Source: an uncultured Planctomycetales bacterium (GTDB taxonomy: Bacteria; Omnitrophota; Gorgyraeia; Zapsychrales; JANLHA01). From it: a DNA stretch of 64,000 nucleotides. The stretch is from NCBI GenBank assembly GCA_964595465.1, contig CAZQQI010000002.1:66078-130077 (forward strand). The letters run 5' to 3'. Positions 49,901 to 56,550 of the stretch are shown one piece after another. The position numbers and the translations under genes were made by a program. The notes under the pieces are model-generated. The model was given only the letters and a program-made list of their open reading frames with translations. It searched no databases and had not been told where the DNA came from. Position 1 is the stretch's first letter; every line of letters begins with the position of its first letter.

Positions 49901-50031
49901 TACTGAATGTTTAGAATTTTAGACATTATTGCATCATATACTTCATTTAAGGGATAATATGTTCATTTTGTCCCAAAAAAACATATTTATTAATGTATTT
50001 GTGGCATATATATTGCTACTATTTAGGTAGA

Positions 50032-51399
50032 ATGGTAAAAAAAACTCTCATATTGCTGATGATTTTTTCCTTTAGCTCTTTGGCAACCAGTGAAGCTGCT
50101 GTGTCGTTCTCGGCATCTCCTGTTCAAGGAGGCACGAATCTTCGTTTTGGGCGCATTGATCTGAAGACAGTTGCGCAGAAAGAAGTCCGTATGCGCATCA
50201 CATCGACAGATTCCACGCAATATCAGGTCTATCAGAGAATGGTGGAGCCTTTGACATCTCAGAGCGGCGTGACAGCTCAGAGGGGGATCCTGCAGTATTA
50301 TGCTTTGGTCGGCTCAAACGGATCCGGAACCCTTTACGGTCAGACAGTGGATTATGTGGCGCAGTCAGATCAACTGCTCTATGCGTCCAGCACGGACGGA
50401 AAAAGTGACAGCTTCACTATGATCTACACGGTCGATCAGGACCGCTTGACCGAGGCCGGTCAATATTTCGGCAGATTATTGTATACTGTCCGTCCTTTAG
50501 GAGGGGGATCCCCGCAGGAAGTTTATCTGGATGTCTTTGTGGAAGCCGATATGGAGCTTCGATTTGAGGTCACTGATGTGGGCGGCGGGGCTCCGGGCAT
50601 CGTCCTTCGGACAGATTCTGACGAACAGATGCGTGACGCAGCTGTGATCGCTTTCTCTGGCAGTGCGGGGACATCGCGCATTTATCTGGATACGCAGAGC
50701 TGGCCGCGCTCGGATAAAACCGGCAGCCGCCTGAACGAGAATGCGATTGAACTCTCTGTTAAATCGGATTCTGCGGCGAAATTACCGTTCAGTCAATTCG
50801 CGCCTCTGCCGCCTTTACGGACCTTGATTTATTCATCTGACCGCCGCGAAGATGATGTTCTGTTAAGTTTCCGCTTTAATCCCGACTACATTGAAGATCT
50901 TGCCGCGGGGGAGTACCAGGGCCGTTTCCGGCTGTCGTTTGAAAGTAATGATCAGGTGCGTACACAAGACATTGATCTGACTGCCGTGGCAGAACCGGTT
51001 TTCTCTGTGGAACTGGAATTTGACCCGCAGGGTATGCAGTTCGAGCAGATTCTGCCGGTATCACCGCCGCAGACACGACGGGTTGATGTGACGGTGAATA
51101 CCAATTTAAAGAGGCCCTATGTTGTCAGGCAGATTTTTGTCCAGCCGATGGCAAACACTGCCGGTCAGGAGTTTGATCCGCAATATTTTATGATCAAAAC
51201 TGAGAAAACACCGGAAACAGAAGGTAAAGGGGCTTTTCCGGAATTTGTTCCTCTTACGGGTAAAGACGCCGTGATTTACCGCTCTGATGATCAGGGAAGC
51301 CCGGCCCGGTTTGAGGTGCGTTATCAGCTTCGTCCTTATCCGGAAATGAATCCTGGAACGTACACTTCGGAAATCACCTATTCACTGGAAGAACGCTAA
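50032..51399 (+). CDS. Secreted protein made of tandem pilin-like (SCPU/DUF4402-like) beta-sandwich modules. Candidate fibre tip/adhesin subunit.
   Basis: Signal peptide 'MVKKTLILLMIFSFSSLATSEA'. Domain-terminal motifs 'GQYFGRLLYTVRP' and C-terminal 'PGTYTSEITYSLE' resemble the G-x-Y-x-G…(T/V)-(V/L)-x-(V/Y) donor-strand terminus of chaperone-usher pilins. The track ORF starts at 49993. Confidence 0.4.
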   Translation: MVKKTLILLMIFSFSSLATSEAAVSFSASPVQGGTNLRFGRIDLKTVAQKEVRMRITSTDSTQYQVYQRMVEPLTSQSGVTAQRGILQYYALVGSNGSGTLYGQTVDYVAQSDQLLYASSTDGKSDSFTMIYTVDQDRLTEAGQYFGRLLYTVRPLGGGSPQEVYLDVFVEADMELRFEVTDVGGGAPGIVLRTDSDEQMRDAAVIAFSGSAGTSRIYLDTQSWPRSDKTGSRLNENAIELSVKSDSAAKLPFSQFAPLPPLRTLIYSSDRREDDVLLSFRFNPDYIEDLAAGEYQGRFRLSFESNDQVRTQDIDLTAVAEPVFSVELEFDPQGMQFEQILPVSPPQTRRVDVTVNTNLKRPYVVRQIFVQPMANTAGQEFDPQYFMIKTEKTPETEGKGAFPEFVPLTGKDAVIYRSDDQGSPARFEVRYQLRPYPEMNPGTYTSEITYSLEER

Positions 51400-51442
51400 A
51401 TGGGAATTTATTAAGAAAACACACAAACAAGGGGGTTGTAAG

Positions 51443-52084
51443 ATGAAAAGAACAATCGTATTCACTTTATTCATTGCTTTGGGCCTGATCGGTTTGGGTT
51501 TGCAGTCAGCTCATGCTCAAAGCACTCAGAACTTTGCCGTTACGGCAGAGGTTCCGGAAGCCGGATCGATCGTATTTAATCTTTTTGAGATCGATAATGA
51601 TGTCTTTCCGGAAACACCCGAAGCTGACACAAATGTCGACTTTGGAATTCTGTCGTACGATGAAGAATTGGGGATATTCCTGCCGCAAAACGGACGGTAT
51701 TATGCGCTTGATCTGGGCACAGACCTAACCGGTGCTGGATCTGCGGATGATATTAACTTTACGTATGAAAAGATTTCCGATCCGAATGAGGATGCAGGAA
51801 ACCCGCGAGGAGGTCTCGGCGACAAGGTGACCCTTGCTGTAGCCCGTGCGCATGAGGAGGAAGCGGAAGAAGTTCTTGATCGGTTGATCCTGAATAATGC
51901 AGGCGGGGCGTCCTATCAGAAAACCCAGTTTACCGGAGGATGGCCGCGTATTTATATCGGGGTCAATACTGGTGAATTCGACAGTGATGATTTCGCAAAT
52001 CTTAGCGGGGGAGAGGTCTTCACACTGGCCGATGAACCGGGGATTTACAGCGGATCATTGACTGTTTCGGCAACTGTGAATTAA
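51443..52084 (+). CDS. Secreted pilin-like subunit (spore-coat-U / archaic chaperone-usher pilin-like)
   Basis: Signal peptide. N-terminal 'QNFAVTAEVPEAGSI…VDFGIL' and C-terminal 'GIYSGSLTVSATVN' match the SCPU-domain layout (A-x-V-x-A-x-V … F-G … G-x-Y-x-G-x-L-T-V-x-V). Confidence 0.45.
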   Translation: MKRTIVFTLFIALGLIGLGLQSAHAQSTQNFAVTAEVPEAGSIVFNLFEIDNDVFPETPEADTNVDFGILSYDEELGIFLPQNGRYYALDLGTDLTGAGSADDINFTYEKISDPNEDAGNPRGGLGDKVTLAVARAHEEEAEEVLDRLILNNAGGASYQKTQFTGGWPRIYIGVNTGEFDSDDFANLSGGEVFTLADEPGIYSGSLTVSATVN

Positions 52085-52150
52085 ACAGTAATCGCAATTT
52101 AGGACGCACTGCGGTATCCGACTGTCTGGAGTCTGCAGTGCGTCCTCTAT

Positions 52151-52972
52151 ATGGGAAAAAGAATGAAATTTTTTATTTATATTGCAGTCATCCTTGCCTG
52201 GCTGACCATTCCGGTGTCTGTTCAGGCTCAGTTATTGCTCGAGCAGGGTAAGGTCAAAAAGATCGTTCAGCCTGGCGAAACCGTAGTCGGCACATTTAGT
52301 GTGCATAATTTAGGCCAAAAAGCGATCAACGCCGATATTTACTTGGAGGATTTTGAGTATAAACCCCCATTTACCGGTGAGAAGAATTTTATGAGAGCCG
52401 GGACAGCCGAGCGGTCTAACGCGGAATGGATCAATTTTTATCCAAGTGAGATCACATTGCCGCCTTCCAGTGCTGATACGATACGGTACACCATCAATGT
52501 ACCGGAAGATGCGCGGGGCGGTTACTATAGCGTGATGTTCTTTGAGGCCGCCGGGGGCTCACCGGATCAGCTGGATTCCACCGGGCTGCTTATTATCGCC
52601 CGGGTCGGGACTTTATTTTTTGTGGAAACAGAGGACCGCCTCAAGAAGATTGAGGTCACTGATGTGTCATTGAGTGATGAACAGCTTGTAACACGGGTTA
52701 AAAACGACGGCAATGTTGTTTTGGTCGTTTCGAGTGTTTACTTTGTTCTTGATGAAAATGGAGTTCCGGTTTCGCGGGGAAAGGCGGACAGCCGGTATCT
52801 GGGGATTGGAGATGCTGTAGATATCCCCTTTTCATTACCGGATGATCTTGACCAAGGCCGCTATACAGCTGTCATAACCTACGATATGGAAGAAGGGGAT
52901 GCTGCTGTTTTAGAGGCGGAACTGCGCAAGACATCGGCCGGTACTCTGGAAGTCGTGGATTATACCCAATAA
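52151..52972 (+). CDS. Secreted two-domain beta-rich protein at the chaperone position of the fibre locus (candidate periplasmic chaperone)
   Basis: Signal peptide 'MKFFIYIAVILAWLTIPVSVQA'. 273 aa, about two 120-aa beta-rich halves. Its size and placement between the subunit genes and the large OM protein mirror chaperones in CU loci. No diagnostic motif was confirmed. Confidence 0.3.
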   Translation: MGKRMKFFIYIAVILAWLTIPVSVQAQLLLEQGKVKKIVQPGETVVGTFSVHNLGQKAINADIYLEDFEYKPPFTGEKNFMRAGTAERSNAEWINFYPSEITLPPSSADTIRYTINVPEDARGGYYSVMFFEAAGGSPDQLDSTGLLIIARVGTLFFVETEDRLKKIEVTDVSLSDEQLVTRVKNDGNVVLVVSSVYFVLDENGVPVSRGKADSRYLGIGDAVDIPFSLPDDLDQGRYTAVITYDMEEGDAAVLEAELRKTSAGTLEVVDYTQ

Positions 52973-55945: not shown

Positions 55946-55959
55946 TACGTCCGGTGTCC

Positions 55960-56202
55960 TTACTTCATAAGACGTGTTTTCACCAAAACAAATTCCCCAT
56001 CCCGCACCGCTTTTTCTTCAATAAGCTGGAGTTTACTTTGCTCAGTATTCTCTGCGGACAGGTCCGCTTCTTCGGGGAAATAGTTCAGCCCTAAGAGTTT
56101 GGGGATTTCCACGGTGACTTGGAGTTTGGTTGAGTCACACTGCGCCGGAACTGAGAAGAGAAACAGGACGAGCAGGATTGTCAGAACGGAGAGCTTTTTC
56201 AT
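55960..56202 (-). CDS. Small secreted hypothetical protein
   Basis: ATG at 56202 with an AAAGGAG RBS. Signal peptide 'MKKLSVLTILLVLFLFSVPAQC'. The longer track ORF starting at 56268 would contain a terminator hairpin. Confidence 0.4.
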   Translation of the reverse strand: MKKLSVLTILLVLFLFSVPAQCDSTKLQVTVEIPKLLGLNYFPEEADLSAENTEQSKLQLIEEKAVRDGEFVLVKTRLMK

Positions 56203-56236
56203 GATACGCGCTCCTTTCTGAGCCCCGAACGAAAAA

Positions 56237-56266
56237 GACCCTGCCGAAAGGGGCAGGGCTGTTTTC
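56237..56266. terminator. Bidirectional intrinsic-terminator-like hairpin (GACCCTGCC-gaaag-GGGCAGGGCT flanked by A-run/T-run) lying in the 5' leader of the small minus-strand gene
   Basis: Seen directly. Plus strand: stem + 'GTTTTCATTT'. Minus strand: stem + 'TCTTTTTCGTT'. Confidence 0.55.
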
Positions 56267-56550
56267 ATTTGACGGAACTCATTGTTAAATAAGTTACGGC
56301 AGCCAGACAGCCGTATCTGCGGACAGACGTAGGCTCACAGCTTTGTGCCCCACTCTTTCAAGTGGTTTACCTTTAAATTGTCAATTAAAGTATAGCATGC
56401 GGACAAGGCCTTCTGCCAAGACCTGATCAAAAAATTCGTCATGAATTTTCGAATAAAATATTGCAATTTTTTGTCTAAAAGGTTAGGATGAATACAGTTA
56501 CGCAATATTTATGACAGTTTTGCGAAAACGCTTTCTAAAGGAGCCTGTTC

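Follow-up and report, generated by a model that had tools for sequence, protein, structure and literature searches.

What do four consecutive genes for secreted proteins build at the surface of an Omnitrophota bacterium? Omnitrophota are ultra-small, uncultivated, largely host-associated bacteria, and the window considered here, meaning the whole stretch of 64,000 nucleotides that was analysed (contig CAZQQI010000002.1), comes from a Candidatus Omnitrophota metagenome-assembled genome (MAG). An earlier reading of this stretch (hereafter the sequence-only reading) had taken the four genes, which code for proteins of 455, 213, 273 and 971 amino acids (aa), for the tip, major subunit, chaperone and usher of a surface fibre. 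We consider it probable that the locus builds a surface fibre and does so as a chaperone-usher-like machine in a bacterium with two membranes. Judged from the proteins' sequences, tip, shaft and cap would be assembled by donor-strand exchange.

The four open reading frames (ORFs) are co-directional on the + strand and lie where they had been placed (Table 1). Each protein begins with a Sec-type signal peptide, as had been claimed for the first three, and reading of the sequences puts cleavage between SEA and AV (455), AHA and QS (213), VQA and QL (273), and ASA and QY (971). Related loci were sought by a pattern scan covering one genome per species. The scan returned 46 loci, nearly all of them Omnitrophota MAGs; the other taxon labels are taken to be labelling or binning problems. 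ORF calling combined with phmmer and hmmsearch revealed that the order 455-213-273-971 is kept in ~40 distinct species-level loci, which is beyond chance and answers the call for a synteny check on the quartet. The shaft gene encodes 246–265 aa in the more divergent loci. Neighbouring genes vary between loci, which marks the cluster as a module complete in itself. A homologue of a small convergent ORF is found directly 3' of the 971 gene in 33/40 loci, so that the module counts five genes rather than four. The sequence-only reading had noticed this ORF and regarded it as framing the locus. The ORF exists, but it is a conserved fifth component with a c-di-GMP-I riboswitch rather than a frame.

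The 455-aa protein, the proposed tip, is made up of three homologous pilin-like modules of ~135 aa (residues 24–156, 176–305 and 324–453; hhalign probability 98.7–99.6%), every one of which terminates in a-G-x-Y-x-G-x-h-x-Y-x-h (h, hydrophobic). The C-terminal motifs quoted earlier for the subunits, GIYSGSLTVSATVN, GQYFGRLLYTVRP and PGTYTSEITYSLE, were all found, together with an overlooked copy in the 455-aa protein, GEYQGRFRLSFES. Column statistics identified an 18–19-residue segment with an alternating-hydrophobic strand after modules 1 and 2. After module 1 the strand is V-Y-L-D-V-F-V-E-A (residues 164–172); after module 2 (residues 312–322) the family consensus is h-x-h-D-h-E-h-E-h-x-P and the window has Q-D-I-D-L-T-A-V-A-E-P. 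Module 3 stops 2 residues past its GxY...YSL strand and has no extra strand, and no N-terminal extension precedes module 1, whose first strand forms the mature N-terminus. This layout is expected if the strand after a module completes that module, which would make the 455-aa protein a trimer complemented in cis, with a single open acceptor site at its C-terminal end, and hence a tip.

Free single-module subunits were found in two related loci, L041 (184 aa) and L047 (174 aa). Both consist of a signal peptide, an N-terminal extension, the module and the C-terminus, and in alignment their N-terminal extension coincides with the strand that stands between modules in the 455-aa protein. The proposed layout of tip, major subunit, chaperone and usher thus appears to be backed by the open module 3 and by the matching N-terminal strands on the subunits that would come next. 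A 1044-aa protein (P0063) with 8 matched stretches was considered as a natural poly-subunit and turned out to be an unrelated repeat protein.

Kinship of the subunits with SCPU or sigma fimbriae, also part of the sequence-only reading, was not borne out. Pfam gave no match at E ≤ 1 for the 455-aa or 213-aa protein of the window, and neither SCPU nor DUF4402 matched at E ≤ 0.1 among 22 members of the 455 family. The NCBIfam model CPR_Pam_pilin_C (NF058581), a truncated immunoglobulin (Ig) domain of the Pam pili of the Candidate Phyla Radiation (CPR), matched 6/22 members with a best E of 2.6e-8, at 20–30 bits against a cut-off of 55; the window protein itself scored 20.1 bits (E 5e-4) against that cut-off. 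In the Protein Data Bank (PDB), the 455 family profile matched the engineered CfaE-CfaB pilin fusion 3f83 (E 2.2e-4).

The 213-aa protein, the proposed shaft subunit, represents a family of 201 representatives (50% identity clustering), nearly all of ~200 aa. The family is without database annotation, and an NCBIfam scan gave no fimbrial-family match, including to the Pam pilin C-domain model. Its best-conserved segments are the C-terminal strand, the segment GGW/F-x-R-x-Y-x-G and the N-terminal F31 segment. The C-terminal strand, PG-x-Y-x-G-T-L-T-x-T-A-T, is the protein end and carries 3.0 bits per column. The N-terminal extension, F31-x-V-x-A-x-[IV]-P38-x-A (V in the window), begins five residues past the cleavage site. 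AlphaFold2 modelled the protein as a single nine-strand beta-sandwich (predicted local distance difference test, pLDDT, 90.5; predicted TM-score, pTM, 0.81), a monomer model that is compatible with an open groove or a closed fold alike. Foldseek with this model found no PDB neighbours at E ≤ 1e-3.

Directly 3' of the 213 gene is a hairpin with a 14-bp GC-rich stem and an inner 4-bp stem. Its folding energy is -37.2 kcal/mol (z -6.6), and 0/200 shuffles were as stable. Hairpins of differing sequence stand at the same position after the shaft gene in at least 19/36 sources (the window and 35 loci) at z < -3, several of them with U-runs. In the pap and fim operons, a similar hairpin after the major pilin gene raises its expression relative to the assembly genes. 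The hairpin after the 213 gene would ensure that more shaft subunit than machinery is made.

The small protein most likely starts at the ATG at 56202 (M23), as indicated by its homologues and by the presence of the riboswitch terminator inside the longer ORF. After the signal peptide it reads L-Q-V-T-V-E-I-P in the window and F/Y-K-V-S-V-T-I-P in the family consensus. The 213-aa and small proteins share this N-terminal strand pattern, h-x-h-x-h-x-h-P, and the hidden Markov model of the small protein cross-matches the N-termini of 213 homologues in many loci. The strand is followed by ~30 variable residues and then by a conserved C-terminal hairpin, V-R-D-G-x-x-V-L-L-K-T-x-V-x-K. A donor-type strand with no room for an acceptor domain suggests a cap or terminator, whose role may be analogous to that of PapH or of PamR in the Pam model.

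The region upstream of the small gene predicts that this gene is controlled by a cyclic di-GMP (c-di-GMP)-I riboswitch with a terminator. The aptamer matched RF01051 at 69.8 bits (gathering score 35; E 1e-11), the sole Rfam match in the 64-kb window. Downstream of it come, in order, a terminator hairpin with U-run, an AAAGGAG ribosome-binding site and the small-gene ATG. An aptamer above the Rfam gathering score stands at the same place in 6/9 other loci (57–76 bits), and one more locus reaches 33.4 bits. Our own covariance model, built from seven aptamers, gave a match under a stricter search in 35/35 sources (the window and 34 loci). In the window and in 33/34 loci, two of which have the small gene in divergent orientation, the aptamer closely precedes the small gene; L041 has only a weaker 25-bit match (E 0.005) upstream of the small-gene position. 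In 36 aptamer instances 93% of pair cells are paired, compared with 27–43% in slid-partner controls, and compensatory changes occur in 21/23 pairs. The expression platform is conserved as well, with aptamer, short hairpin, UCCGU(U/C)AA and GC-rich terminator following one another and an equivalent GC-rich terminator in 19/23 sources (the window and 22 loci). When the region was folded with or without the aptamer constraint, the terminator formed both ways. The 5' arms of the terminators (GCCCU) are complementary to the invariant AGGGC of the aptamer, which weakly hints at an OFF switch.

Several loci depart from this arrangement. L041 has an additional aptamer (6989–7073) between the 455 gene and a shaft-like gene, and its riboswitch-side "small" gene encodes the full 184-aa single-module subunit. 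L025 has two tandem GEMM-I aptamers upstream of the small gene (6556–6732). In L046 the small gene is present, and our covariance model found no aptamer. In L008 (12105–12795) a toxin-antitoxin-like pair, judged by eye to be an 86-aa ribbon-helix-helix-type and a 151-aa PIN-like protein, sits between the 971 gene and the small gene. L002 (5361–5726) and L003 (1559–1924) carry a 121-aa PilZ-domain gene, recognised by a weak precomputed Pfam match, directly upstream of the 455 homologue. This gene is a possible second link of the module to c-di-GMP.

The 971-aa protein, the proposed usher analogue, was examined with 9 homologues, on which its family statistics and model rest (at least 9 exist). 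The domains that had been assigned to it were recovered. The family profile matched tetratricopeptide repeat (TPR) proteins of the PDB with E down to 1e-17. The "pilus formation N-terminal" domain PF13629 scored 19.1 bits in the window protein, against a cut-off of 23, and was found in 7/9 homologues (best 8e-8). The two Cna-B-like domains are SdrD_B (PF17210; E 4e-13), present in 9/9 homologues. The barrel-like middle was modelled by AlphaFold2 with pLDDT 80–94 over residues 285–783. In the model (mean pLDDT 75.6, pTM 0.51), the signal peptide is followed by a helical TPR (~31–91), a disordered P/S/T/Q-rich linker (87–178), the PF13629 beta domain (179–261) and a helix (264–277). DSSP then assigned ~26–27 long strands across residues 285–783, and two SdrD_B beta-sandwiches follow at ~795–962. 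In the related protein of L047 the TPR is absent, and PF13629, the barrel and the SdrD_B core are retained.

Structural comparison pointed to ushers. The top 10 Foldseek matches in the PDB were all FimD or PapC (E 6e-19 to 2e-14; 770–826 aligned columns). Isolated usher barrels matched with E 1e-9 and TM-scores of 0.47–0.49; MOMP, AlgE, TonB-dependent receptors and LptD gave E ≥ 1e-8. The sequence gave a different answer. PF00577 was not found at E ≤ 1 in the window protein or its 9 homologues, hhalign of the 971 family against FimD returned a probability of 0.5%, and a PDB profile search produced no usher match. The earlier claim that this protein is unlike a classical usher therefore stands for its sequence and fails for its fold and domain order, which run from N-domain to barrel to two sandwiches as in ushers. 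The negative FimD comparison leaves membership of the usher family unsupported, and the 971-aa protein is best called an usher analogue. Two other readings of it were rejected. A secretin shares its PF13629 N-domain alone, no secretin domain (PF00263) being present, and AlgE-type matches, which would favour a TPR-barrel polysaccharide exporter, are ~10 orders of magnitude weaker than the usher matches.

The 273-aa protein, the proposed chaperone, has 18 close homologues at 36–43% identity, plus more distant ones. Pfam gave sub-threshold Ig-like matches only. In the PDB, the family profile matched EfmWxLIP1 (9i25/9i1y) best, with E 9e-4 over both domains (residues 29–262 against 21–269); hhalign of the two gave a probability of 77% (E 2e-5, 202 columns). 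PF06030, formerly DUF916, matched weakly in 19/27 family members. All matches to WxLIP (DUF916/DUF3324) are below the Pfam gathering score, so the relationship is distant. The second-best PDB match, weak and partial, was the fimbrial chaperone EcpB (E 0.012–0.04). PapD_N and PapD_C were not among the 25 most often matched of 34 Pfam families in the 27 members, and hhalign against FimC gave a probability of 0.3%. The claim that this protein is a PapD-like chaperone thus held in part: kinship with two-Ig-domain chaperone candidates was found, membership of the PapD family by sequence was not. By its sequence matches, the 273-aa protein appears to belong with the WxLIP family and the Pam-like chaperone candidates as a two-Ig-domain relative.

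The published descriptions of these relatives bear on its role. WxLIP consists of two perpendicular Ig-like domains and is predicted to undergo strand insertion into its WxL partner (PMC10599100). PamC and PamD are PapD/FimC-like putative chaperones, membrane-anchored because CPR cells have no outer membrane (10.64898/2026.03.03.709456). No hydrophobic helix stands at the C-terminus of the 273-aa protein or of its 18 close homologues; the distant homologues P0023 and P0025–27 do have a C-terminal transmembrane helix. Homologues with such a helix sit in a Pam-like Patescibacteria operon (L051). By analogy, a soluble WxLIP-type protein would be the form expected of a periplasmic chaperone in a diderm.

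Some related loci show other arrangements of these genes. The first pilin of L051 covers the whole CPR_Pam_pilin_C model (E 1.7e-6, below the cut-off). L049/L050, labelled as a Gammaproteobacteria MAG, are organised like L051, with a pilin, a membrane-helix-anchored 273-like protein, a second pilin, a second anchored 273-like protein, a 136-aa protein and a ~780-aa protein; these loci resemble Pam-type operons, and the taxon label is probably wrong. In an Omnitrophota locus, L036 (1900–8750), there are three tandem 213-like/273-like pairs and an additional 213-like gene, which suggests that subunit and cognate chaperone duplicate jointly.

Nothing that the sequence-only reading had named as speaking against itself was found: the 971-aa model best matches FimD and PapC, the 273-aa protein is a two-Ig-domain relative and the genes are syntenic. 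A mechanism can be proposed on this basis. Sec exports all five proteins, as their signal peptides predict. In the periplasm, the soluble 273-aa protein would hold subunits whose last domain misses its final beta strand and would hand them to the 971-aa protein, the large barrel of which would be the conduit. The PF13629 N-domain and the two C-terminal sandwiches would replace the N-terminal domain and the two C-terminal domains, CTD1 and CTD2, of an usher, as the model and its usher matches suggest. The 455-aa protein, with cis-complemented modules, an open module 3 and no donor strand of its own, would go first and form the distal tip. The 213-aa protein would polymerise behind it, each N-terminal strand being donated to the preceding subunit. 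The 80-aa protein, a donor strand without an acceptor domain, would act as cap or terminator of the fibre and perhaps also as its anchor, and its synthesis would be set by c-di-GMP through the GEMM-I riboswitch and its terminator platform. Hairpin and riboswitch both fit a polymer that needs an excess of its building block and whose completion is tied to the messenger of the sessile/motile switch.

The kinship of the 273-aa protein raises another explanation, a non-polymeric surface complex resembling the WxL/Csc clusters of Gram-positive bacteria, with the 273-aa protein a scaffold that binds the 213-aa and 455-aa proteins one to one and the 971-aa protein an anchor or exporter. Of the sequence relatives whose structure has been solved, EfmWxLIP1 is the nearest; in the literature WxLIP is regarded as a scaffold whose hairpin strand is inserted into WxL proteins (PMC10599100); and the 213-aa model looks complete and compact. 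We nevertheless regard such a complex as unlikely. No locus protein has a WxL domain, and a scaffold would need a membrane anchor, which the 273-aa protein has lost. The missing last strand, the N-terminal strands that match it and the linkage of three modules in cis all speak for a chain, the hairpin after the 213 gene suggests that this subunit is in large excess over the 273-aa protein, and the architecture of the 971 model is usher-like.

The model of the 971-aa protein also bears on a second explanation, in which the locus exports beta-sandwich proteins of a matrix or S-layer type, the 971-aa protein being a generic pore like the TPR-plus-barrel exporters and any assembly taking place outside the cell without usher-catalysed strand exchange. 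This seems quite unlikely, because full-length ushers match 6 to 10 orders of magnitude better than exporters and because chaperone-usher operons typically have a periplasmic two-Ig protein of their own and run from tip through shaft and chaperone to pore, as this locus does. From the related L047 protein the TPR is missing, and its PF13629, barrel and SdrD_B core is kept. It is improbable that the locus is a highly divergent true homologue of the classical chaperone-usher superfamily (e.g. one branching deeply, close to the archaic/sigma or alternate classes) instead of a separate Pam/WxL-related lineage: although ushers are the best structural matches of the 971 model, EcpB, the second-best PDB sequence match of the 273 family, serves the E. 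coli common pilus (Ecp) as chaperone, and the C-terminal GxYxGxhThT motif resembles that of Caf1- or SCPU-type subunits, the Pfam matches listed for the families include no PF00577, PF00345 or PF05229, the FimD, FimC and FimA profile comparisons are negative, the 273-aa protein scores better against WxLIP and does so over both domains, the barrel strands outnumber those of an usher with the inserted plug absent, and the N- and C-terminal domains of the 971-aa protein come from other Pfam families (PF13629, PF17210).

Several observations weigh against a chaperone-usher-like fibre. The fibre itself is a prediction from computational evidence. Among the Pfam matches listed, no component has one to Usher, PapD_N/C, Fimbrial or SCPU, and hhalign comparisons with FimD, FimC and FimA of strain MG1655 were negative. 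The barrel of the 971 model has no inserted plug domain of 70–80 residues and by itself resembles usher barrels only slightly more than it does MOMP or AlgE; the usher resemblance comes from a 9-sequence model with a pTM of 0.51 and TM-scores of 0.3–0.4. Homology between the 213 and 455 families was looked for and rejected, nothing being detected past the signal peptide and the short GxY strand. In published work WxLIP is read as a peptidoglycan- and host-binding surface scaffold, not as a chaperone (PMC10599100), and the chaperone role of PamC and PamD is predicted only.

Within the chaperone-usher-like reading, we tentatively entertain a more specific possibility. The locus may correspond, in a diderm, to the Pam machinery of CPR and the WxL machinery of Firmicutes, as a separate donor-strand-exchange lineage with a soluble WxLIP-type chaperone, an usher analogue of independent origin from the PF00577 ushers and c-di-GMP-set capping by a mini-subunit. 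If this is true, fibres built by chaperone-assisted strand exchange are older and wider than the proteobacterial paradigm and span monoderm and diderm envelopes, which would contradict the reported restriction of Pam-type components to CPR.

The consequences for Omnitrophota would be more immediate. A survey of these bacteria listed type IV pili, Tad pili and giant ORFs as the only attachment factors (PMC10066038), and our full-text literature searches returned nothing linking chaperone-usher systems with Omnitrophota. If the fibre is real, the phylum would have a third surface-fibre system, one that is widespread and has escaped annotation until now. A riboswitch-controlled donor-strand-only cap would likewise be a new coupling of c-di-GMP to fibre length or anchoring. 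The system connects chaperone-usher pili, CPR Pam pili and Firmicute WxL/WxLIP clusters, treated separately so far. Since the 971 barrel is modelled without an inserted plug and carries different N- and C-domains, it offers a natural test of the minimal requirements of an usher. The sizes of the components permit heterologous expression and multimer prediction, and hence direct testing of these hypotheses.

Table 1. Positions in the window of the five genes of the module and of the associated DNA and RNA elements.
Feature	Position	Strand	Remarks
455-aa gene	49993/50032-51399	+	ORF, 468/455 aa by start; proposed tip
213-aa gene	51443-52084	+	ORF; proposed shaft (major) subunit
273-aa gene	52151-52972	+	ORF; NCBI start 52163 (269 aa); proposed chaperone
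971-aa gene	53030-55945	+	ORF; proposed usher analogue
Small gene	55960-56202	-	80 aa; ORF reaches 56268; proposed donor-only cap/terminator
Stem-loop after shaft gene	52101-52146	+	Likely attenuator or mRNA stabiliser
Intrinsic terminator hairpin and U-run	56238-56259	-	Between aptamer and small-gene start codon
c-di-GMP-I (GEMM-I) aptamer	56295-56381	-	Rfam RF01051
AT-rich intergenic region upstream of operon	49901-50031	+	Inverted repeat within

For two of the proteins NCBI has entries of 100% identity, one named "hypothetical protein" (for the 273-aa protein) and the other "SdrD B-like domain-containing protein" (for the 971-aa protein). Look-ups by exact sequence returned no record for the 273-aa protein of the window or for P0021. 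Upstream of the operon, the 8-bp inverted repeat AATATGTT/AACATATT reported by the sequence-only reading was found at 49956–49987, and a sigma-70-like site, TTAACT-17-TAGAAT, at 49889–49917 is a consensus match only. Genes upstream of the module in the window encode IlvD, a TPR protein, response regulators, a secreted coiled-coil protein and an HtrA-like protease. Those downstream encode a VCA0040-like protein, a phosphorylase, an aldo-keto reductase, an SPL-like protein, a HAD hydrolase and a MutY-like protein. These flanking genes are unrelated to the module. The two nearest upstream encode a 504-aa secreted coiled-coil protein with SMC-like heptad matches only (46815–48329) and, directly next to the module, an HtrA/Deg-type protease with a PDZ_3 domain (48368–49900). 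Both are probably outside the module, because they are not upstream in the loci with called genes (L001–L005).

Looser relatives of the module, with subunits, a 273-like gene and a 971-like gene, were found in an unclassified MAG (L047) and an Acidobacteriota MAG (L048), and relatives were also seen on Bacteroidota-like contigs. On one of these, a Logan contig with Bacteroidota-like neighbours (L004, 7236–13082), a distant 273 relative lies between a 185-aa protein ending YVQTITYTATAN and a 913-aa protein, and a 493-aa protein ending IDVIYSFTAL comes after the latter. The 913-aa protein was rejected as a counterpart of the 971-aa protein, its alignment to that family being confined to the SdrD_B-like domain. 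The L004 system may be a more remote branch of the same system type and is at best a distant cousin. An 8.2-kb contig labelled as a Methanosarcinales archaeon (L017, JAIWAR010000056.1) carries the whole module, namely a 455 fragment and the 213, 273, 971 and small genes, along with a GEMM-I aptamer. The contig probably belongs to Omnitrophota and was mis-binned, which would fit Omnitrophota living attached to methanogens.

How does the module compare with known systems? With the classical chaperone-usher pili (Fim, Pap, CFA/I) it shares an adhesin or tip, a major subunit, a periplasmic two-Ig protein and a large outer membrane barrel, the barrel lying between one N-terminal and two C-terminal beta-rich domains. 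In both, subunits finish on a GxY...h-x-h-x-h strand and begin with an alternating-hydrophobic extension, a hairpin follows the major subunit gene, and a small donor-only or defective subunit is present, the one here being comparable to the terminator PapH. The module nevertheless has no sequence homology to the classical families (PF00577; PF00345/PF02753; PF00419) and fails sequence-based membership on usher, chaperone and subunit. Its barrel has ~26–27 strands rather than 24, and nothing is inserted where ushers have their plug, between strands 6 and 7. PF13629 serves as N-domain, with a TPR and a long disordered linker in front of it, SdrD_B supplies the C-domains, and the proposed chaperone comes from the WxLIP (DUF916) family. 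Three pilin-like modules in tandem make up the proposed tip, and the cap gene is convergent and riboswitch-controlled.

The CPR Pam pili are alike in other respects. The 273-aa protein is related to two chaperone-like proteins of the Pam-like Patescibacteria operon, the 455 modules weakly match the Pam pilin C-domain model, below its cut-off, and the Pam linker strand, which completes the truncated Ig domain of a neighbour, is paralleled by the inter-module strands. Pam pilins carry an extra nine-strand N-domain and have been reported as exclusive to CPR (bioRxiv 10.64898/2026.03.03.709456). Pam operates in monoderm cells with chaperones that have a C-terminal membrane helix and with no outer membrane component, whereas here the 273-aa protein has no such helix, the module includes the 971-aa barrel protein and the host belongs to the Omnitrophota. 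To the Firmicute WxL/WxLIP (Csc) clusters the likeness lies in the 273 family, which aligns with EfmWxLIP1 over both Ig-like domains. The module differs from these clusters in having no WxL-domain proteins, no transmembrane helix on the 273-aa protein and, in a diderm, a dedicated barrel protein; the WxL clusters have not been proposed to form a polymer. The secretins CpaC and RcpA of Tad/Flp pili have the PF13629 domain in common with the 971-aa protein, which also gave a faint PDB match to 8jvb; unlike them, it has no secretin domain, and its membrane part is modelled as a monomeric beta-barrel.

Control by c-di-GMP riboswitches (GEMM-I/II) is known for adhesins and pili, e.g. for pilA1 (a type IV pilin) and CD2831 (an adhesin) of Clostridioides difficile. 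The module resembles these cases in that an aptamer with a terminator platform stands directly upstream of the gene for a proposed fibre component. It departs from them in the gene that is regulated, which here encodes neither the main pilin nor an adhesin but a tiny donor-strand-only protein, convergent to the assembly operon.

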